Shown: in pieces, positions 1 through 8,436 of the stretch
Layout of the letters: the number at the start of each line of letters is the position of its first letter
Position numbering within the stretch: the stretch's first letter is position 1
From: Candidatus Wukongarchaeum yapensis
GTDB taxonomy: Archaea; Asgardarchaeota; Wukongarchaeia; Wukongarchaeales; Wukongarchaeaceae
Length of the DNA: 8,754 nt
Direction of reading: 5' to 3'
NCBI GenBank assembly: GCA_016840425.1
Contig: JAEOSI010000082.1
Coordinates: 1-8,754 of the forward strand
The notes under the pieces: model-generated
The model's database searches: none
The model's input: the letters and a program-made list of their open reading frames with translations, nothing else
What the model was told of the DNA's origin: nothing
Position numbers and translations under genes: made by a program

Positions 1-460
1 GGTTTGTCAAAAACTGCTGGGAAAAAGAAGTTTCAGAAATCGTCATAGGAGATATAACCCACATAAGAGAGAACAGTAGAAAGAAAATGAAAGGCAGAAA
101 AGCTAATGCGATGATAAACAACTTCTGGTCTTTTAAATACATCTACGAACGGCTTAGAGTAACAGCAGAAAATCACGGAATAAACACGAGGAAAAAGGAT
201 GAAAAATACACGTCTAAAACCTGTTCTCTCTGCGGAAAAATGCACAGAAACGGTAGAAAACACAGGGGACTATACATCTGTAAAACGCATGGAGTAACGG
301 TGAACGCAGACGTGAACGGTGTAGCGAACATAGCTAACCCGATATTCCCGAAGCCCTACTGGTGGGATAGGGATAACTGGCTGGTGGCACAGCCATCGGT
401 TGTAAAAGTTAAAACAACAACCGTAGAACCTCCAACCCTTTAGGGTAGAGAGTATGTCAG
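1..460 (+). mobile_element. IS200/IS605-family (IS1341-like) element, right-hand part with right end at about 460
   Basis: tnpB is followed by a typical right end: guide tetranucleotide GAAC (426-429), imperfect hairpin ctc-ca-accct-tt-agggt-a-gag (430-450), then AGTATGTCAG ending in TCAG (457-460). The left end and any tnpA lie outside the window. Confidence 0.85.
3..443 (+). CDS. tnpB: TnpB RNA-guided endonuclease (IS200/IS605 family), 5'-truncated by the window edge
   Basis: The frame is open from base 3 (FVKNCWEKEVSEIVIGDITHIRENSRKKM...), so ATG87 is internal. Motifs: RuvC-II region IVIGDI (G codon 48-50), WSF helix, DEKYTSKTC, zinc finger CSLC (222-233)...CKTH (279-290), RuvC-III NADVNGVANI (D codon 309-311). 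Confidence 0.93.
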   Translation, partial: FVKNCWEKEVSEIVIGDITHIRENSRKKMKGRKANAMINNFWSFKYIYERLRVTAENHGINTRKKDEKYTSKTCSLCGKMHRNGRKHRGLYICKTHGVTVNADVNGVANIANPIFPKPYWWDRDNWLVAQPSVVKVKTTTVEPPTL

Positions 461-480
461 TCAAGAAAGTAACCACATTG
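350..480 (+). ncRNA. Predicted omegaRNA/reRNA (3' scaffold plus guide) of TnpB; 5' boundary unknown and probably further upstream
   Basis: Consecutive stems: cccta/taggg (354-358/368-372), tggctg/cagcca (378-383/390-395), cggttgt/acaaccg (397-403/417-423) and the right-end hairpin 430-450. TnpB omegaRNAs are known to overlap the tnpB 3' end and take the guide from flanking DNA (here from 461: tcaagaaagtaaccacattg). Confidence 0.6.
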
Positions 481-1476
481 CAAACAGAAGTTCAAATCTC
501 TTGGTATAAATGCGCCGCATTGGGTGCAAAACTTTTTGAACCGTTCTTCCTCAGCACTTTCCAACATTGATAACCAGTAGATATCATCCATCGAGACACC
601 GCTTACTTCGAAACTCACAAATTTATCCCATTCAAACATTCTTTCTATAAGATCGTCTGCTTCTTCTTTGTTTTTTACAAAAAATCTCACACGTCCCCCT
701 AAACGCATGTAAGGATATCCAAAACCCTCGGAAATTTCTTCAGACATATATTTTTTTGGGACTGCTATTACATCATACTTATACGGGGATCTTTCAAAAA
801 TCTCCCCTACACTCCCTATTTTAAGAGTGGACCCGCCACGTTTCATTAATAACATCTTTGTACATAGCCTGTCCACGACTTCTGAATGGTGATCAACTAT
901 GATCAAAGTGATTCCTTTGACATAGTCTTCGAGATACTTAATTAGATGCTCTCTTCTGCGGAAGTCTAAAGTGGCAAAGACTTCGTCTAATAGTAGTATT
1001 TCAGGCTTTTTCATTAGTCCTATTGCTAATCTTGTCATGGCTTTTTGTCCTTCACTGAAAGTTTCCAGTCTCAAGTCTAGCATGGGCATAAGCCCCATAT
1101 ATTGCAAAAAATCGAAAGCCTGATCTATTTTGCTGTCTTGTATGTCCGCGAAAAATTTCAAGGTTTCTTTTAATGTCAATTTTTTCTGGAAATCAAGAGC
1201 AGGACTAACAAGCGATATCCTATTACGGACTTCTTCCGTATCCTTTATTATATCATATCCGTCAATTAAAGCGGTTCCTGAGTCTGGAAGATAAATTGTT
1301 GCAAGAATTTTTAAAAGAGTGGTTTTTCCAGATCCGTTAGGCCCAATTATGGCTAAAGATTCTTCTCGGTCGAGCTCGAAAGATACACCGTCAATAATCC
1401 TTATAGCTTCGCCCATGAAAAGGTTAGGTTTAAACTCTTTTACAATTTTATCCGCTACAACTATTTTATCTGCCAA
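457..1476 (-). CDS. ABC-2-type exporter ATP-binding subunit with C-terminal zinc ribbon
   Basis: Walker A GPNGSGKT (1321-1344), signature FSEGQ (1045-1059), Walker B ILLLDE, H-loop IIVDH; C-terminal FCTQCG-x8-FCLQCG (475-528). TTG start with TGGGGA upstream; adjacent to an ABC-2 permease. Confidence 0.93.
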   Translation of the reverse strand: MADKIVVADKIVKEFKPNLFMGEAIRIIDGVSFELDREESLAIIGPNGSGKTTLLKILATIYLPDSGTALIDGYDIIKDTEEVRNRISLVSPALDFQKKLTLKETLKFFADIQDSKIDQAFDFLQYMGLMPMLDLRLETFSEGQKAMTRLAIGLMKKPEILLLDEVFATLDFRRREHLIKYLEDYVKGITLIIVDHHSEVVDRLCTKMLLMKRGGSTLKIGSVGEIFERSPYKYDVIAVPKKYMSEEISEGFGYPYMRLGGRVRFFVKNKEEADDLIERMFEWDKFVSFEVSGVSMDDIYWLSMLESAEEERFKKFCTQCGAFIPRDLNFCLQCGYFLD

Positions 1477-1512
1477 CTTTCATTCCCCATATCATATCCT
1501 TATTCCAACTTT

Positions 1513-2358
1513 TTAATAGAATTCCAAGGTACCCCATTTTCTACTTAAATCGGTTATCTTCGCGATAAAAATGAAAGCAAAAACCAGCGCTATTACCGTA
1601 CCTATCAACATCCATTCTAGACCCTCCCAAACTGCAGTATGGGAAATTCCCCCACCTTTATCCTCTGGAATCACGATGTCCCGTATCATTACTAACCCTC
1701 TTGCAATAGGCAAGTAATTTTCAATCCACATCGCAACAGGACCAAATTCAGATTCCTTCCCATTCGACAAGGGGAAATAAAAACCGCTCAAAATTCTTGA
1801 GCTATGCAGAAAAATATTAATGATGACTCCTATTTTTTTGACTATTAATGTGAGGGCTGAAACAATAAAAACAAGGGCTAACATGAAGAACATGCTGATA
1901 AAAAGTATGAGAAAAATCTCTAATAGATATTCTGGAGGAATTCTCAAGTCCAAGACGTACATTACCGGGTATACAACAGCTGCTGCTATGATGGTAAATT
2001 TAAATACTGAAGAAACCATTCTGCCTGTTAACATTGTTGCGGGAGAAACTTGATTAGTTACCAGGAAACCTAGTGTTCCTCTTGCTGCTTCTTCTGGCAC
2101 AGCTAAAACTGATTCTTCGAAGGGTCTTGAGAAAAATGTCCAGTAAAAAATACCGGTTACAAGAATCCAAATGAATGCATTTGTTCCTTGATATTTTACG
2201 AAATTTTCGTTACCTTGTCCGGCAGCATAGCCCAGCGTTCCGAAGGCAACAACTGTTACCATGGTCCAAATCGCATCAGTAACAATTGAAAATTTATATC
2301 TCCAATCGATTTTCAGATAGCGCCATGTGCAGGCGTTTAATGTTTTAAAGTATCCCAA
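1513..2358 (-). CDS. ABC-2 type transporter permease
   Basis: About six hydrophobic segments; EEAARGTLGFL (E-x3-GT motif), LSGFYFPL and terminal R-x2-GTLEFY typical of ABC-2 permeases. TTG start with AAGGAGG at 2370-2376. Confidence 0.9.
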   Translation of the reverse strand: MGYFKTLNACTWRYLKIDWRYKFSIVTDAIWTMVTVVAFGTLGYAAGQGNENFVKYQGTNAFIWILVTGIFYWTFFSRPFEESVLAVPEEAARGTLGFLVTNQVSPATMLTGRMVSSVFKFTIIAAAVVYPVMYVLDLRIPPEYLLEIFLILFISMFFMLALVFIVSALTLIVKKIGVIINIFLHSSRILSGFYFPLSNGKESEFGPVAMWIENYLPIARGLVMIRDIVIPEDKGGGISHTAVWEGLEWMLIGTVIALVFAFIFIAKITDLSRKWGTLEFY

Positions 2359-2408
2359 ACTTTATTTTTCCTCCTTTTCTTTTTTTGTTTTAGTTACTTG
2401 GTATTCCT

Positions 2409-3404
2409 TTATTTTTCCTTTTTTGCAGTAAAAGCGTACCATGGTTTTTCGTAGAATTTTACTTGTTTAAATCCTGAATTTACGAGGGTTGCATTGAATT
2501 TTTCTTTGTCGGGATAACTTTTGAATTCTGCGATTACATGGTTTATCCATTCGTCATAAGCTTCTCCTGTGAAAAAGGTCGTTCCTGCAAATACTCCTTC
2601 TGGTTTAAGGATGTTTTCCACCTGTTCTGTAATATTTTTTAAAGAGGGGGAGTCTGGAAAATATTGGAGGCCGTCAAAGATGAAAACGTAATCATAATCG
2701 TTTCTGGCGGCATATTGGCTTATATTTTCAAGGTCTTTTATTACAGTAATAGAAGCTTCTTTTATGTTATAAATATCTACAACATAGTCTGCGGCTTTTT
2801 TAAATTCTTGGTTGAAGCACATTCCTTCTATCTCGAAAACTCTTCCATCTGTTATATCAAGAACGGTTTTTATACCGTACCCTGTTTCTTGTCCGATGAT
2901 ACAGACATATGTTTCTTTATTTTTCTTAAGATTAGCCTTTTCCATAACATATTCTCGTCTTATTTCGTCAAGAGTTGAACCGGCTATCGCATCATAAAGC
3001 CATAATTCCTTTTGCATAGGTTCTCGTTCAGTCTCATTTTTTATATAAGGAACAAAAACTTGATTCAACCTTTGATAACGTAAAATTTGAGGATATTTAC
3101 GTATTTCTTCAAGTAAAGGGGGGGAAAGCTGCGATATCTCTTTTCTTTTTTCTTCTGTATGTGTAGTGGTCGAAAAAAGGTCACCTTGTTTTTCTAAAAC
3201 CCCTTGGTTTGCTAAAAACGAAAGCCATTTCTCTAAAGTTTCATTTTTAACAAATCTTTTTTCCGAAGATATTTCAGTCATGGACTTTTGAGAAGCCAAA
3301 AGAGTAAATAATTTCTCTTCTTCAGCATTTTTCGTAGCAATTCTTGTGAGTTCGCTCAAAACCTTTTCTTCACCTATTATTAATTCTTCCTCTTTTTTCC
3401 CCAA
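2409..3404 (-). CDS. N-terminal winged-helix + class I SAM-methyltransferase-fold protein with degenerate SAM motifs
   Basis: N-terminal LFTLLASQKSMTEIS...LEKWLSFLANQGVLEKQGDLF looks like a wHTH. C-terminal VCIIGQETGYG (motif I-like, 2880-2906), IEGMCFN (motif II-like), YDYVFIFDGLQYFPD, ILKPEGVF and LVNSGFKQV follow the Rossmann methyltransferase pattern. TTG start with GGAGGAG at 3414-3420. Confidence 0.7.
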   Translation of the reverse strand: MGKKEEELIIGEEKVLSELTRIATKNAEEEKLFTLLASQKSMTEISSEKRFVKNETLEKWLSFLANQGVLEKQGDLFSTTTHTEEKRKEISQLSPPLLEEIRKYPQILRYQRLNQVFVPYIKNETEREPMQKELWLYDAIAGSTLDEIRREYVMEKANLKKNKETYVCIIGQETGYGIKTVLDITDGRVFEIEGMCFNQEFKKAADYVVDIYNIKEASITVIKDLENISQYAARNDYDYVFIFDGLQYFPDSPSLKNITEQVENILKPEGVFAGTTFFTGEAYDEWINHVIAEFKSYPDKEKFNATLVNSGFKQVKFYEKPWYAFTAKKEK

Positions 3405-3462
3405 AGCTTTTTACTCCTCCTTTTATCATAAACAAGTTTTCGTTTTTTCTTCTTTCTTTTTT

Positions 3463-4623
3463 TTATTGTACTATTGAAAGAAGACTTATGAGATTGCGGC
3501 TTTTAAGAAGTAGAAGATAATCTACGAGTCTGCCTATGTTAACGCCTGCTTTTTTGCTTATCTGATATATGGTTTCTTTTCCAGTCATTTCCTTGTACAA
3601 TGGTATCAAATCGCTGAAAAATTCTACCTCTATCGGTGTTTCTATTCCCTCTTTATTCTCATTTTTGGTGAGTGTAGAGGGAAGTAAAAGCTTCGAATAC
3701 AAAACTATTTCAATTAATTCTTTTCTTGTCATGTTTCTAACCGTTAAATCTTCATTACTTTCTAAGTATTTTATAAGTTCCATTACCAGTTCGGGGTCTG
3801 CATAGATCTTTTTTTCTTCTAAAACGTCCATAAGACTTCTTAACCATTCTTCAATAGCCTCATTTAAAACTGTTTTAGAAAATACGACTAGAACGGCTTT
3901 TCTGCCGCTTGAAGAGATCACGTAGAGATTTTGATCCTTCCATGTGGTTAAATTAACTCTTTTCACTCCCTCTTTCATCATCTCTTCAGTCATTTTCGCT
4001 ATTTTCACAGGCTCTATTTTAACCCCTTCTATGAAGTTTGGCACCAGCCGTGTATCAACATTATTCCTTTCAAAATCTATAAGAACTAAACCATGCAAAT
4101 TTTGGAATTCATCATGAGTCTTTACTATCTTTTCCCCTGGCACTAAAGTATACTCGCGTATCTTCCCTTCCCTTTCATACATGACAAAGGTGCGACCGGT
4201 CTCTTTAAATGCATCTTCAAACGCTCTAGGCATCCTTTTTGGTTCCCCTCGAGAACGAACTATTGATGCTTTAGCGATCCTTTCTAACTCTTCTGTCAAC
4301 GCATTTTCTTTACATATAAATAATAGTAAACTGGTTGTAATGGCACCATCTTTCTCTTTATCAAAGCGTGATGCAACCACTCTCTCATTCCCGATCTTTA
4401 AGATATCTATAGGCGTGTGGCTTAACCCTGTATATATCTCAATTAGTCGTGATTGATTTTGTTCAAACTCTGTTATTAAATAGGAGTCTTTAATTACTTT
4501 AAAAAGAAAGGCTATAGGTCCTTCTACAATGTCGAAATTTATGAGGCAAATCGATTTTACACCAAGATCTCGCAGCTTCGGGACAATCTTTTGGGGGAGT
4601 ATTAGATCCTTCAAATAAGCCAA
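3463..4623 (-). CDS. Longin/uDENN-like domain protein with a probable second longin/roadblock-like domain and C-terminal winged helix (NPRL2-like architecture)
   Basis: SICLINFDIVEGPIAF (FDIVEGP at 4516-4536) matches the F-[DH]-x3-G-P first-strand motif of uDENN/longin domains. A second alpha/beta block starts LHGLVLIDF; the C-terminal LYKEMTGKETIYQISKKAGVNIGRLVDYLLLLKSRNLI looks like a wHTH. Start placed at TTG 4623 (GGGAGG at 4631-4636, 7 nt spacing) rather than GTG 4644; 386 aa. Confidence 0.65.
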   Translation of the reverse strand: MAYLKDLILPQKIVPKLRDLGVKSICLINFDIVEGPIAFLFKVIKDSYLITEFEQNQSRLIEIYTGLSHTPIDILKIGNERVVASRFDKEKDGAITTSLLLFICKENALTEELERIAKASIVRSRGEPKRMPRAFEDAFKETGRTFVMYEREGKIREYTLVPGEKIVKTHDEFQNLHGLVLIDFERNNVDTRLVPNFIEGVKIEPVKIAKMTEEMMKEGVKRVNLTTWKDQNLYVISSSGRKAVLVVFSKTVLNEAIEEWLRSLMDVLEEKKIYADPELVMELIKYLESNEDLTVRNMTRKELIEIVLYSKLLLPSTLTKNENKEGIETPIEVEFFSDLIPLYKEMTGKETIYQISKKAGVNIGRLVDYLLLLKSRNLISLLSIVQ

Positions 4624-4644
4624 ATTAGTGCCTCCCTTTAACAC

Positions 4645-4893
4645 CAGTAATTCCCTGCTTTTTGTTCATGTTTTACTTATTCCTAAATATAATTCTCTTT
4701 CTTTAACTTTAATTTTTCGCTTTCCTTTTTTGCGGAAATCTCTCCTATTTAAATTAAATTTCTGCTTTACCATAATAGTATTAAGAAACACTCTCTAAAG
4801 AGAATATAGATAAAAAAATGAGAATAAGCTTAAAAAAGAAAAAACCATACTGTTTAAAAAATTATTTTCATACTATATAACGGGGGAAAATAT
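4645..4893. promoter_or_regulatory. AT-rich divergent promoter region
   Basis: Non-coding region between divergent genes. TATA-like TTTAAAAA at 4853-4860 (+) and purine-rich BRE + TTATATTT around 4684-4700 (-). Exact boxes cannot be fixed by eye. Confidence 0.45.
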
Positions 4894-5697
4894 TTGTCAG
4901 AATTGTTAAGCGTTCGAGAAGAAGAAGAAAGACAAAAATTTGAAAAATTCGTAATTAACGAAATTAAAGAGATAGAATCTTTTCTTATTAAACAAATAAA
5001 ACTATTATCTGAGGGGGAAATTAGAAGGATTTCTTCCTTAACCGGATGCAATCTTGAAGCAAGCCGTGTAGTTGCAATTTTGGAACAAAATTGGCAAATA
5101 GACCCAGATCTTGTTTGCGATGAACTTCAAACAGAACATGTAAGATTACGCCAAATAGGAGAGGAAGTTCCTTCCATAGAATCATATTTACTACAATTCT
5201 CGGTTAATGAGGGTGCATGGATTAAATTTTTTTACGTAAATTTTCCAGAACTTTTAAATGAAAAAATTAAAAATCTTAAACGTTTAGAAGAAGGAATTTT
5301 TGGAACAGTAAAAGAAGCAGAACCAGACGATGCAGTTTACTATATAGTGGAGCTTTACATTCTTCTTAAAACACTTATTGAAGTCGTTATAGAAACTTGG
5401 GTAAAAACCCATATCAAATCTTTTCCTTATGAAGCATCTATCAGAATAGTGGGAGGTCTAAGAAATAAAAGATATGCTGAGGGAGCCTTTGACTTAGATG
5501 AAATACGGAAACCACTTATCAAAAAATTCAATTTTTTAAGATCGATAATAGAAAATTTACAAAAATCGACTCATGTCGTTAAAAGTCTTGAAATTCTTTC
5601 CAGTATAATGGGAGAGTTAACTTCAGAAAAAGATACAAATGACCTATCACTGAAAACATTATCTTGCATGATCTTAGAAGTAGCCATGGAAAAATAA
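4894..5697 (+). CDS. Hypothetical, predominantly alpha-helical acidic protein (267 aa)
   Basis: Long ORF with E/K/I/L-rich composition like its neighbours; TTG start with GGGGG at 4882-4886. No motif recognised. Confidence 0.8.
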   Translation: MSELLSVREEEERQKFEKFVINEIKEIESFLIKQIKLLSEGEIRRISSLTGCNLEASRVVAILEQNWQIDPDLVCDELQTEHVRLRQIGEEVPSIESYLLQFSVNEGAWIKFFYVNFPELLNEKIKNLKRLEEGIFGTVKEAEPDDAVYYIVELYILLKTLIEVVIETWVKTHIKSFPYEASIRIVGGLRNKRYAEGAFDLDEIRKPLIKKFNFLRSIIENLQKSTHVVKSLEILSSIMGELTSEKDTNDLSLKTLSCMILEVAMEK

Positions 5698-5790: not shown

Positions 5791-6405
5791 GTGTGGCTTG
5801 TGATCGATTTTCTTTTAAAAATTGGAAGGTTAAAACGTTACCCTAGAATGGGATGGATTGTTTCAGGTGTCAATCTTGCAGAAATTGAGACCGTTGGAGC
5901 TCATTCATTCAGAACTGCCTTAATCGCTTTAATTTTATCTATGAGGGAAAAGGAACTGTCGAGGGATGAAATTGATATTAGAAGAGTTTTAGAAATGGCC
6001 CTTTTACATGATTTTTCGGAAGCAGTCCTTCAAGATATTGACCGGCGGGTTATTCCTTATTTTGGAGAAGAATTTAAACAGTTAAAAAAGCGGGCAGAAA
6101 AAAGAGCTGTTGAAGAGATTATTTCAAGTATGGGCGACCATGTTGAAACTAAGCGAACTTTCTTGGAAGTTATCGAAGATTACATGCTTGAAAAATCAAA
6201 AGAGGCAAAGATAGTGCAGGTTGCAGACAGGTTAGAAGTGCTGATACAGGCTTTTGAATATGAGCAGCTTGGATATCCTAAGAAATTGTTTGAAGACTTT
6301 TGGAGTAACATCGTTAAAGAAGTGGAAAATTCGGGCATTAAAAGTGCAAACAAATTATTAGAAGAACTATTAAGATCAAGAAACAGAAAAAAAGGATCGT
6401 GTTAA
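5791..6405 (+). CDS. HD-domain 5'-deoxynucleotidase, YfbR/HDDC2 (YGK1)-like
   Basis: LKRYPRMGW, ETVGAHS, LLHDFSEAVLQDI and ADRLE give the H...HD...D metal ligands of this family. GTG start at 5791 or 5800. Confidence 0.9.
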   Translation: MWLVIDFLLKIGRLKRYPRMGWIVSGVNLAEIETVGAHSFRTALIALILSMREKELSRDEIDIRRVLEMALLHDFSEAVLQDIDRRVIPYFGEEFKQLKKRAEKRAVEEIISSMGDHVETKRTFLEVIEDYMLEKSKEAKIVQVADRLEVLIQAFEYEQLGYPKKLFEDFWSNIVKEVENSGIKSANKLLEELLRSRNRKKGSC

Positions 6406-7169
6406 GATTGAATTTTTTAACAGATGAGGAGAACGAGCGTTATCAAAGACAGATTGTTCTAAAAAGTATAGGAAAAGAAGGGCAAGAGCTGCTTAAAAAG
6501 AGCCGTGTTGCGATTGTAGGACTTGGGGGTTTGGGGAGTATTTCCGCTATGTATCTTGCATCAATGGGGGTCGGTTTTATCAGATTAATTGACAAAGATG
6601 TTGTAGAAGTCTCTAATCTACAACGACAAATACTTTACACCGTCCATGACCTAGCTTCTCCTAAAGTAGAGGTAGCAAAAAGCAGGTTAGAGGCTATGAA
6701 TCCTTACTGTAAAGTTGAACCTTTATCTGTTTTTGTAAGTCCAAAAAATATAAAAGAAATCGTGGAGGGAGTAGATTTAGTTATTGATGGATTAGACAGC
6801 TTTTCCTCAAGATTTGTCGTTAATAAGGCGTGTGTTCAAAAGAATATCCCCTATGTTTTCGGCGGAGTCTTAGGTACGCTTGGAAACACTTCCACCTTTA
6901 TCCCTTATGATGATTCTCCGTGCTTAGAATGTATTTTTTCTAAAGTACGAGACGAAGAACTTGAAACCACCGAAACAGCAGGCGTTCATCCTAGCATTAT
7001 AGGCATAATTTCCTGTATACAAATAAGCGAAGCTGTAAGAATCATCACAGGAAAAAAACCACTTCTTAAGGGAAAACTTTTATTCGGTGACCTTGAAAAC
7101 CTTGATTTTCAATCTATTGAAATCGTTAAAAACCCCTCATGTCCCACTTGCTCCAAAAAAAGACCATAA
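6399..7169 (+). CDS. ThiF/MoeB/HesA-family E1-like adenylyltransferase (UbaA/MoeB-like)
   Basis: RYQRQI, VAIVGLGGLGS (nucleotide-binding loop), IDKDVVEVSNLQRQ, DLVIDGLDSF, and Zn ligands CLEC and CPTC. Overlaps the HD gene by 7 nt; alternative TTG start at 6408. Confidence 0.93.
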   Translation: MLRLNFLTDEENERYQRQIVLKSIGKEGQELLKKSRVAIVGLGGLGSISAMYLASMGVGFIRLIDKDVVEVSNLQRQILYTVHDLASPKVEVAKSRLEAMNPYCKVEPLSVFVSPKNIKEIVEGVDLVIDGLDSFSSRFVVNKACVQKNIPYVFGGVLGTLGNTSTFIPYDDSPCLECIFSKVRDEELETTETAGVHPSIIGIISCIQISEAVRIITGKKPLLKGKLLFGDLENLDFQSIEIVKNPSCPTCSKKRP

Positions 7170-7176
7170 AGAGTCG

Positions 7177-8157
7177 ATGAACGTGGAAGAAAAAAATTTT
7201 TCAAAAAACTTAACCCCCTCAACCTCCCCAAAAAAGTCATCTCCTTTGGCTGAAGGGTTTTTGGCATTTTTTCTCATCACTGTAAGCCTCACATTTTTTA
7301 TTAGTATCGCTTTAATTGTGGATTTTGGAGCTTACTCGGTAATTTTTTCGCTTTTAGGATACTTAACCGGCTTATTGATCGTCCTTTTTTTCACGATGCA
7401 CTTTGACGGGATGGGGCTTAAATCTTCTTTTAAGTATTTAGGGATCAAAAGAAAACACGCTTTGCGTTATGCTGGATTCGGAATCGCCTTTTGCAGCGTC
7501 CAATTTTATATAAAAACTGTAATCGAATCTTTTTTCGGCATCAAGCCCATCCCTCTTTCATGGATTGACTGGCTGACGATATTTTTCATACTTTTTATCA
7601 TGATCCTTCTTGTAGGCTTCTTTGAAGAAATAACTTTTAGAGGATATATCCAATCAAAACTCATAGAAGCAAACTCGAACAAAGTTTTTCGCGATATCCC
7701 CATAGGCTTGGTTATCGCCACCTTACTATTTGGATTAGCCCATATCCCATCCTTAGTGATAACCACAATCGTCGAAGAAGGCCCAAGAGAAGTGTTAAAA
7801 ACCGTTTTTTTAATAGTTTTAATTTATCAGTCTACTATTTTAGCAATAGTAGGCTTAACATTGGGAATGATGTTTTACCGCTCTAACAACAACTTGTTCG
7901 GTAACATGACATGGCACGGCACATGGAACTTTTACGTCTTCATAAACCCCCTACCAGTAATAATAGCCCACCCTACCACATCATTAATAATAGTCCCCAC
8001 CTTGGACAATACCGATTTTGCCCTCCTAGTAGTCACCGAACTACTACTAATCCCCCTCATTCTACTCATAGGTTACGGGCTCATAGAACTCATGCCTCTC
8101 TCAAAAGACGAAAAAATCCAACACTTTAATAGCAAAGAGCTAAAAGTAAATATCTAA
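7177..8157 (+). CDS. CPBP family (Rce1/Abi, CAAX-protease-like) intramembrane glutamic protease
   Basis: Motifs FFEEITFRG (EExxxR), LFGLAH (FxxxH) and WHGTWN (HxxxN), with many TM segments. Start placed at ATG 7177, 7 nt after the E1 stop, rather than GTG 7087 inside the E1 gene; 326 aa. Confidence 0.9.
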   Translation: MNVEEKNFSKNLTPSTSPKKSSPLAEGFLAFFLITVSLTFFISIALIVDFGAYSVIFSLLGYLTGLLIVLFFTMHFDGMGLKSSFKYLGIKRKHALRYAGFGIAFCSVQFYIKTVIESFFGIKPIPLSWIDWLTIFFILFIMILLVGFFEEITFRGYIQSKLIEANSNKVFRDIPIGLVIATLLFGLAHIPSLVITTIVEEGPREVLKTVFLIVLIYQSTILAIVGLTLGMMFYRSNNNLFGNMTWHGTWNFYVFINPLPVIIAHPTTSLIIVPTLDNTDFALLVVTELLLIPLILLIGYGLIELMPLSKDEKIQHFNSKELKVNI

Positions 8158-8436
8158 AGATAAAAGGAGAAAAAGTATTCCAAATCCCATAAAGAAAGAA
8201 GCAACGCTTAAACGCAACAAAATATCCTTAAAAGTTTTATAAGGCGAAGTCTCAATAAACACAACAAAAATAAAGCCTGTCAAAATTCCAAGAAACATGA
8301 ATAAAATCGCCAATTTACCATAAGCTCCCGGTCCTATCCAAGGATCCCATCGGCCAAAATCAATCAAAGGAGCCCATTTAAACAACCGAACCACCAACAC
8401 TAAAAACAGGAAATAAGAAAAATACTTTACTTTCAA
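8140..8436 (-). CDS. Small hypothetical membrane protein (about 3 TM helices)
   Basis: Three hydrophobic stretches separated by WDPWIGPGAYGK and ETSPYKTFKD loops; fills otherwise empty space; TTG start; 18-nt convergent overlap with the CPBP gene. Confidence 0.55.
   Translation of the reverse strand: MKVKYFSYFLFLVLVVRLFKWAPLIDFGRWDPWIGPGAYGKLAILFMFLGILTGFIFVVFIETSPYKTFKDILLRLSVASFFMGFGILFLLLSLDIYF

Follow-up and report, generated by a model that had tools for sequence, protein, structure and literature searches.

A candidate two-gene module in Asgard archaea: an NPRL2/NPRL3-like longin protein and its predicted methyltransferase-fold partner

How much of a tight four-gene run in an Asgard archaeon belongs to one system? 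The question is raised by a contig of 8,754 nucleotides (nt) from Candidatus Wukongarchaeum yapensis, analysed at full length and called here the window (contig C63 of G000, a metagenome-assembled genome of 2.16 Mb that is 92% complete), on the minus strand of which lie genes A, B, C and D (Table 1). As originally predicted from the letters alone, an NPRL2-like longin/winged-helix scaffold (A), a degenerate methyltransferase-fold sensor of S-adenosylmethionine (SAM; B) and a zinc-ribbon ABC exporter (C and D) would make up one putative operon and one metabolite-sensing module, with a logic resembling that of SAMTOR and GATOR1 in animals. The answer towards which we lean, without great firmness, is a smaller one: the core of the locus would be the two-gene module A-B, with B acting as a non-catalytic subunit of A, and the exporter would be a lineage-specific neighbour. 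In what follows, letters A to E denote genes of the window, and f, g, G and L label families, genera, genomes and loci, respectively (L010 corresponds to G001 and L014 to G015).

Conservation of the gene pair and its predicted complex

The neighbourhood of A was surveyed by profile searches of 400 Asgard genomes, which found full-length A in six families, namely f1, f2, f19, f4 (27 of 31 genomes), f14 (10 of 12) and f23 (10 of 12), and outside them only N-terminal-domain or marginal matches. A gene of the B family lies immediately downstream of A in 38 of the 51 genomes that carry A, spread over four of the six families: f4 (26 of 27), f14 (9 of 10), f1 (2 of 2) and f19 (1 of 1), with two genomes that could not be judged for adjacency at contig ends. 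Across these adjacent pairs the identity to the window copies is 22-29% for A and 13-22% for B, and the two genes overlap by up to 38 nt or stand up to 152 nt apart, the median spacing being about 55 nt. The surroundings are far less constant. In f4 an HD-domain gene precedes A-B and a convergent Band-7 gene follows, in f14 the order is E-A-B, then optionally a CAAX protease and a DEAD helicase with DUF5814, and then an ABC permease and ABC ATPase, whereas the pair of f19 is flanked by other genes than those of f4 and f14. Because the pair persists while its flanks change among f1, f4, f14 and f19, we consider A-B a conserved unit, and the neighbour relation noticed at first in a single contig extends to four Asgard families.

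A physical association of both products, which the original prediction had suggested, is also supported by modelling. The predicted A-B complex reached an ipSAE of 0.76 (0.78, 0.76 and 0.74 in the individual runs), with 0.00 for each of three controls; this mark was attained by 58 of 80 solved complexes and by 2 of 110 mismatched pairs, a calibration that holds only roughly for a prediction made, as here, with our own alignments. Contact agreement among the runs is at least 94%, and the predicted local distance difference test (pLDDT) of the partners is at least 89. In the predicted interface, residues 292-299, 319-335 and 368-378 of A face residues 98-142, 174, 176 and 200-213 of B. The A side comprises the conserved W/F372, S375 and P330 together with R376, which is the only invariant residue in the protein's C-terminal part, and the B side includes the conserved acidic positions D/E138 and D/E210. 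The predicted contact lies beside the cofactor pocket of B and includes its motif I loop.

Folds and motifs of the two proteins

Gene A has no match in Pfam or NCBIfam, and a word-index search with A, as well as with B, returned only relatives of 83-99% identity. When 1.84 billion representatives were searched exhaustively with HMMER, the yield for A was larger, with 24 clusters (at 50% identity), mostly of 385-410 amino acids (aa) and 20-27% identity. An alignment of 22 members of this family (A2) was used for an AlphaFold 2 model of pLDDT 81, which shows an N-terminal longin domain with the expected beta-beta-alpha-beta-beta-beta-alpha-alpha order, a second longin/roadblock-like domain, and a helical region ending in a winged helix (Table 1). 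By VIA comparison the first domain matches the longin/roadblock domains of sigma-adaptin, zeta-COP, VAMP7 and LAMTOR with Z of 7-8.3. The top Foldseek matches are the NPRL2/NPRL3 chains of GATOR1/SEA complexes (E 4.6e-6 to 1e-5), led by 9v0j_A (E 4.6e-6, 376 columns) and followed by 8adl_S, 9o5a_H and 9o5d_D. In an unbiased VIA search of 48,161 chains, ranks 1 and 2 went to 8fw5_C (Z 9.4, 168 residues aligned, root-mean-square deviation (rmsd) 18.2 Å) and 8adl_S (Z 8.8, 175 aligned, 13.6 Å), which span residues 16-384 of A, a colinear match over the whole length with the C-terminal domain included, whose margin over single-domain matches is modest. Moreover, the nearest clusters in the ESM Atlas belong to C9orf72 (TM-score 0.37) and to NPR2-family proteins (0.35 and 0.30).

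Further support comes from a short motif. The sequence FDxxxGP of the A family has two invariant residues, F30 and G35, and a conservation of 90% or more at D31 and P36 (alignment A2), and G35-P36 open strand 2 of the modelled longin domain (35-42), as in the longins of GTPase-activating proteins (GAPs). This GP motif has been described as specific to the GAP-type longins of FLCN, NPRL2, SMCR8 and C9orf72 and to some Asgard longins (PMC12290439), so that its presence in A gives the NPRL2/NPRL3-like reading a support from sequence that is independent of the model. Altogether, the longin domain, second alpha/beta domain, winged helix and GP motif bear out the description of A as an NPRL2-like gene as far as structure is concerned; the model points with modest strength to an NPRL2/NPRL3-like architecture, and homology is not proven.

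Gene B has only sub-threshold methyltransferase matches in Pfam, and its model is of higher confidence (pLDDT 92.7, predicted TM-score 0.89), in which a winged helix is joined by a helical linker or lid to a class I (Rossmann) methyltransferase domain. The seven-stranded Rossmann-like fold is borne out by the structural search, where all 1000 aligned chains have Z of at least 8. The closest structures are polyketide C-methyltransferases, a methyltransferase of a ladderane cluster and family-2 O-methyltransferases, with Z of 26.0 for AprA MT2 (6d6y), 25.9 for 8hd2 (rmsd 2.8 Å over 281 residues) and 25.6 for the CurJ C-methyltransferase (5thy). SAMTOR was not among the 50 structural matches listed for B by Foldseek and VIA, and a weaker match is possible. 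In the same line, the Bmt2 family of Pfam is found neither in the match list of the window B nor among the 25 of 35 families listed for 22 members of the B family, where only generic methyltransferase families appear. The idea that B would be SAMTOR-like in particular thus finds no backing, its neighbours being small-molecule C- and O-methyltransferases.

The degenerate character attributed to this gene is, on the other hand, evident at the SAM-binding site. Motif I of the window B reads G171-Q-E173-T-G175, so that Glu replaces the central Gly of GxGxG, and Cys196 stands where strand 2 ends (motif columns of alignment A3). In class I methyltransferases the acid that ends strand 2 binds the ribose of SAM. 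Both GxGxG and the strand-2 Glu are intact only in f4 (alignment A3), and in that respect the window copy differs from the f4 orthologues; the signature is further eroded in f14, f19, f23 and G002, where the strand-2 acid is gone, and motif I of f14 is unrecognisable. Since the window B combines GxExG with Cys196 at the ribose-binding position, the SAM sensing proposed for it is doubtful, and the sequence indicates that this copy is probably a pseudoenzyme. The D190A variant of human SAMTOR is unable to bind SAM (PMC10883374), D190 being at most a possible counterpart of Cys196 in B.

How might such a pair work? A would be a double-longin and winged-helix protein shaped like NPRL2/NPRL3 and equipped with the GP motif of GAP-type longins. 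B may dock onto the C-terminal winged helix of A around Arg376, using its lid helices, the loop of motif I and the helix that follows strand 2. Because two hallmark SAM-binding positions are lost in G000, we infer that, most likely, B serves A as a regulatory or scaffolding subunit without catalytic activity and is neither an enzyme nor a sensor of SAM. The heterodimer may in turn regulate one of the 21 small GTPases of the Ras superfamily or Ras family that were matched in G000.

The exporter genes, gene layout and neighbourhood

The products of C and D are recognised by their families: C matches ABC2_membrane (PF01061, E 2e-11) and D matches PF00005 (E 4.6e-27), both above the cut-off, and D also matches the drrA model TIGR01188 (E 1.3e-41) below its cut-off. 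With a permease and an ATPase encoded side by side, C-D is, by these matches, an ordinary ABC-2 exporter. The C-terminal extension of D ends in a CxxC...CxxC zinc ribbon (residues ~316-336) with sub-threshold DZR and zinc-ribbon matches at 315-336, and residues 299-339, ribbon included, do not align to the f14 homologues, which are 42-43% identical. As for the role of the exporter in the system, C-D directly follows B only in genus g1, homologous permease and ATPase genes lie 3-6 kb downstream of A-B in f14, behind the CAAX protease and/or the DEAD helicase, and ABC-2 exporter genes are absent from the A-B loci of f4 and f19. C-D is therefore probably a lineage-specific neighbour of the pair and not a conserved part of it, and the proposal that it belongs to the system is not supported by the wider comparison.

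The layout of the four genes was confirmed by the listing of open reading frames (ORFs) and by direct reading: all are co-oriented, with gaps of 58 (A-B), 50 (B-C) and 36 nt (C-D), TTG starts and motifs resembling Shine-Dalgarno (SD) sequences (Table 1). An alternative start of A is a GTG at 4644, which would give 393 aa. T-runs of five or more on the coding strand are absent from all three gaps, and a terminator scan found no minus-strand site inside them. Two relatives, L010 and L001, keep the same A-B-C-D order with TTG starts and SD motifs at 84-90% protein identity, and co-transcription of the four genes in genus g1 is plausible from this arrangement. With E, which diverges from A, five genes in a row start at TTG behind SD-like motifs (1476 for D, 2358 for C, 3404 for B, 4623 for A and 4894 for E). 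Genome-wide, TTG is estimated to account for about 36% of the SD-led starts, ATG for about 56% and GTG for about 8% (shares calculated as the excess over the internal-codon background), an unusually high TTG share for a prokaryote, so that a run of four TTG starts is unusual and not extraordinary.

Table 1. Features of the window, with domains of protein A given in residues
Feature	Position	Strand	Details
Gene A, NPRL2/NPRL3-like	3463-4623	minus	386 aa from TTG; ORF listing and direct reading
A, longin domain	residues ~20-147		Model; strands (E) and helices (H): E22-31, E35-42, H48-68, E74-77, E80-91, E94-104, H110-147
A, second longin/roadblock-like domain	residues ~175-270		Model
A, helical region and C-terminal winged helix	residues ~277-383		Model; invariant R376 in W..SRNL motif
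Gene B, winged helix and class I methyltransferase fold	2409-3404	minus	331 aa, TTG start
Gene C, ABC-2 type membrane permease	1513-2358	minus	281 aa, TTG start
Gene D, DrrA-like ABC ATPase with C-terminal zinc ribbon	457-1476	minus	339 aa, TTG start
SD-like GGGAGG before A	4631-4636	minus	Spacer of 7 nt to TTG; kept in G001
SD-like GGAGG before B	3416-3420	minus	Spacer of 11 nt to TTG; kept in L010 and L001
SD-like GGAGG before C	2370-2374	minus	Spacer of 11 nt to TTG
Weaker SD-like GGGG before D	1485-1488	minus	Spacer of 8 nt to TTG
Divergent A/E intergenic region, AT-rich	4624-4893	.	270 nt; presumed promoter region of both genes; GC 0.29 in the 4501-5000 bin
Gene E, short member of a helical Asgard family	4894-5697	plus	267 aa, no Pfam match, TTG start
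TnpB/Cas12f-like gene, 3' part	3-443	plus	Cas12f1-like_TNB, E 2.8e-14
HD-domain YfbR-like 5'-deoxynucleotidase	5791-6405	plus	
ThiF/E1-like gene	6399-7169	plus	256 aa
CAAX-protease gene	7087-8157	plus	
Ost5-like ORF	8140-8436	minus	98 aa; PF05251, E 1.1e-11, above cut-off

Other genes around the pair deserve a description of their own. The family of gene E occurs in 150 of the 400 Asgard genomes, usually with about 400-560 aa, and is absent from f4 and f9; in f1, f14 and f23 it is a neighbour of A, and it is so even without linkage of B to A. The orthologue of E in G015 has a sub-threshold COG4_m match (E 1.1e-5), and in the ESM Atlas, where the model of E has a pLDDT of 0.50, neither features nor structure gave a usable match. 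The HD-domain gene recurs near the pair (the window, L011, L012, L016-L018 and L024): in f4 it sits immediately upstream of A, in f1 only E separates the two, and in G002 it is next to the B-like gene, which is unlinked there. In f14 and f23 the gene after the B-family member encodes a DEAD/DEAH helicase with C-terminal DUF5814 (L013 10924-13604, L014 10105-12852, L020, L022, L025 and L028); in f23 it stays with the B-like gene, while A stays with E. A frameshift may be the reason why the helicase of L013 comes as two ORFs that overlap.

Within the rest of the window, the ThiF/E1-like gene is short in comparison with the 350-355 aa of G001, G035 and G015; some 100 residues present at the C-terminus of these orthologues seem to be missing from it. 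The CAAX-protease gene comes almost directly after it and aligns to G001 from ORF residue 32. Beyond these, the small ORF matching Ost5, subunit 5 of the oligosaccharyltransferase, is a eukaryotic signature protein. At the other end, the TnpB/Cas12f-like gene finishes 14 nt from the stop of the convergent D, a place taken directly after D in L010 only by a small 78-aa ORF, and in L001, some 330 nt on, by a 331-aa gene with faint nitroreductase matches.

Alternative readings and known systems

Several observations weigh against the A-B module as outlined above. The Pfam families NPR2 (PF06218) and NPR3 (PF03666) are matched by none of the 22 A-family members at E of 0.1 or below, and a search of PDB sequences with the profile of A yielded nothing beyond chance matches (E of at least 0.09), with no GATOR1 chain among them. 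The structural match to NPRL2/NPRL3 is itself modest, with Z of about 9 standing only 1-2 units above the single longin matches, TM-scores of 0.2-0.37 and a global rmsd of 13-18 Å, which is high because the domains are hinged; the subunits of tri-longin Rab guanine nucleotide exchange factors (Mon1, Ccz1, Fuzzy, Inturned, BLOC-3) do nearly as well in Foldseek. R86 and R18 of A, at least 90% conserved, are no more than candidates for an arginine finger. The complex with B is a prediction, and its figures are a measure of model confidence. A and a B-like gene are unlinked, on different contigs, in f23 (10 genomes) and G002, and the genomes surveyed are kin, so that counts of adjacency overstate independence. 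No Rag-type GTPase, with a G domain followed by a C-terminal roadblock domain, was found in the 92%-complete G000, where PF04670 has only weak G-domain matches (E of at least 2.4e-7, profile positions 1-172 of 232, mostly frames of 172-210 aa). Small-GTPase genes occur near A or B in 3 of about 22 loci, against roughly one expected by a rough estimate from the 21-34 such genes per genome.

The loci concerned are nevertheless worth recording. Only in G002 does the homologue of A have a true Gtr1/RagA gene (PF04670, E 1.5e-32) at a distance of 3.7 kb, so that L015 (G002:C4) has a Ras-like GTPase (11149-11817, minus strand) and a Gtr1/RagA-type one (13450-14409, plus strand) within 4 kb of that homologue. 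Ras-family genes of this genome are found no more than ~2 kb from A and from the B-like gene, and in L023 (G084:C7) a Ras-family GTPase (4711-5226, minus strand, E 8e-51) is divergently adjacent to A. Such linkage was discounted as evidence, not being beyond chance at these gene densities.

Against this background, what else could the locus be? If B were an active methyltransferase, at least where its motifs are intact, A could be what it methylates, a subunit that recruits its substrate, or its activator, in the way that PRMT1 methylates NPRL2 or Trm112 activates methyltransferases. Such a role would agree with the GxGxG and strand-2 Glu kept in f4, with a fold closest to bona fide enzymes and with the methyltransferase-activator complexes Bud23-Trm112 and Hvo_0019-Trm112 among the structural neighbours of B, and NPRL2 is methylated by PRMT1 in animals, as cited in PMC13708097 and PMC13738686. 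We nonetheless judge it unlikely: the SAM signature is eroded in most lineages (f1, f14, f19, f23 and G002), a catalytic site that can be dispensed with argues against catalysis as the conserved role, and no substrate is evident. In another version of the A-B pair, which we find decidedly unlikely, the complex would be a ligand-gated regulator of a small GTPase, with the cofactor-pocket face of B on the winged helix of A; SAM or S-adenosylhomocysteine would switch the association in f4, and copies of the window type would be blind to the ligand. A further reading would retain the four genes as one system, where B would sense SAM, signal through the scaffold A and control the zinc-ribbon exporter or couple to it. 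Tight spacing, co-orientation, the lack of T-run terminators and the shared order in L010 and L001 speak for such an arrangement, as do the ABC-2 homologues downstream of the pair in f14 and a predicted interface that touches the motif I loop by the cofactor pocket. It becomes highly improbable, however, when f4 (the largest group, 26 genomes) and f19 have the pair without C-D at the locus and f14 has them separated, when the zinc-ribbon end of D is unaligned to the f14 homologues, and when the window B has neither the middle Gly of motif I nor the strand-2 acid. In addition, we know of no link between longin proteins and ABC-2 exporters.

Two further explanations do without any role in GTPase signalling. 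The presence of a winged helix in both proteins invites their interpretation as DNA-binding regulators with a ligand-binding domain fused to the winged helix, which would control the transcription of neighbours such as the ABC exporter, the longin likeness being then that of a common alpha/beta fold for binding small molecules or proteins; IclR effector domains, the GAF domain of CodY and TrmB-annotated proteins of Thorarchaeota are found among the weaker structural neighbours of A, and one B orthologue matches HTH_45 below the curated cut-off. However, the winged helix of A is predicted to be buried against B and not free for DNA, its only whole-length matches are NPRL2/NPRL3, the GP motif is specific to GAP-type longins (PMC12290439) and the neighbours of A-B are not conserved across families, which makes this interpretation very unlikely. 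We give similarly little credit to the adjacency of A and B being inherited synteny with no functional or physical link and the complex a false positive, as happened with the 2 of 110 mismatched pairs. All genomes belong to one phylum and many of them to one genus (g29, 22 genomes), the HD, ThiF, E, CAAX-protease and helicase neighbours are partly conserved too, and the pair is split in f23 and G002; against it, the pair outlasts the change of both flanks among f1, f4, f14 and f19, the three complex controls all stayed at 0.00, and the interface uses the only invariant C-terminal residue of A with conserved acidic residues of B.

The A-B module would matter for several reasons. NPRL2-like longins belong to the eukaryotic signature proteins from which it has been argued that the machinery of nutrient and GTPase signalling is older than eukaryotes, and a conserved predicted partner offers biochemistry a concrete two-protein target. 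With its SAM site eroded repeatedly, B would offer a case from nature of a methyltransferase that became a regulatory subunit, while membership of the ABC exporter was an over-reading corrected by synteny. Were the association ligand-gated after all, a logic like that of SAMTOR and GATOR1 would have arisen in Asgard archaea, independently of the eukaryotic pathway or before it, and copies like the window B would be locked in binding and insensitive to the ligand, much like SAMTOR D190A, which is blind to SAM and binds constitutively.

SAMTOR (BMT2) is an animal SAM sensor that binds GATOR1-KICSTOR at low SAM. To our knowledge it occurs in animals only, and any likeness of B to it is for this reason probably convergent. 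Both have a class I methyltransferase fold after an N-terminal helical part, and B differs in its N-terminal winged helix, in having no Bmt2 match listed and in the loss of the SAM-binding signature. SAMTOR associates with the NPRL2/NPRL3-containing complex through a site on its methyltransferase domain (PMC10883374), and the contact of B (residues 98-142, 174, 176 and 200-213) with its NPRL2-like partner A (292-378) is a predicted one. Since the exporter and a particular likeness to SAMTOR are unsupported, SAM sensing is doubtful for the window B and no Rag GTPase was found in G000, the parallel with SAMTOR-GATOR1 is an analogy, not shown homology, and one worth testing in the f4 orthologues.

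Closer in structure to B are the family-2 O-methyltransferases and polyketide C-methyltransferases (AprA MT2 6d6y, CurJ 5thy, DszA 6cca, 8hd2, DnrK, BchU), with which it shares the architecture over the whole length (Z 19-26, rmsd 2.8-4.3 Å over 281-321 residues). B is only 11-16% identical to them, most copies linked to A have degenerate forms of motif I and of the ribose-binding acid, and a biosynthetic gene context is replaced by pairing with a longin gene. The exporter, for its part, resembles DrrAB and other ABC-2 exporters in its ABC2_membrane permease C and DrrA-like ATPase D, and departs from them in the zinc ribbon of D, which has no aligned counterpart in the f14 homologues.

Proteins with an NPRL2-like longin and a C-terminal domain have already been published for Asgard archaea (Liu et al., bioRxiv 10.1101/2020.10.19.343400), as have Asgard longins with the GAP-type GP motif (Traffic 2025, PMC12290439). 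The family of Liu et al. occurs in most Thor and a few Loki metagenome-assembled genomes, with fusions to two-component domains, and the main text never mentions a methyltransferase (bioRxiv 10.1101/2020.10.19.343400); no account of the A-B pairing was found in the literature on SAMTOR in archaea or on Asgard NPRL2 and longins. The A family, in comparison, is small, full-length in six Asgard families and paired with a methyltransferase-fold gene. With NPRL2/NPRL3 themselves (Npr2/Npr3 of yeast; GATOR1/SEACIT, the GAP for RagA/Gtr1), A shares its size (386 aa, against 363-405 in the matched chains), an N-terminal longin followed by further alpha/beta and helical parts, the last of which in A is a winged helix, as well as the GP motif, which has been reported for NPRL2 where strand 2 begins (PMC12290439). 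The differences are that A has no detectable sequence homology to them, that G000 shows one A-family match and no NPRL2/NPRL3-type pair of paralogues, and no Rag GTPase was found there, and that the predicted partner of A is a methyltransferase-fold protein. In both the PDB and the ESM Atlas, NPRL2/NPRL3 are nevertheless the best structural matches of A over its whole length.

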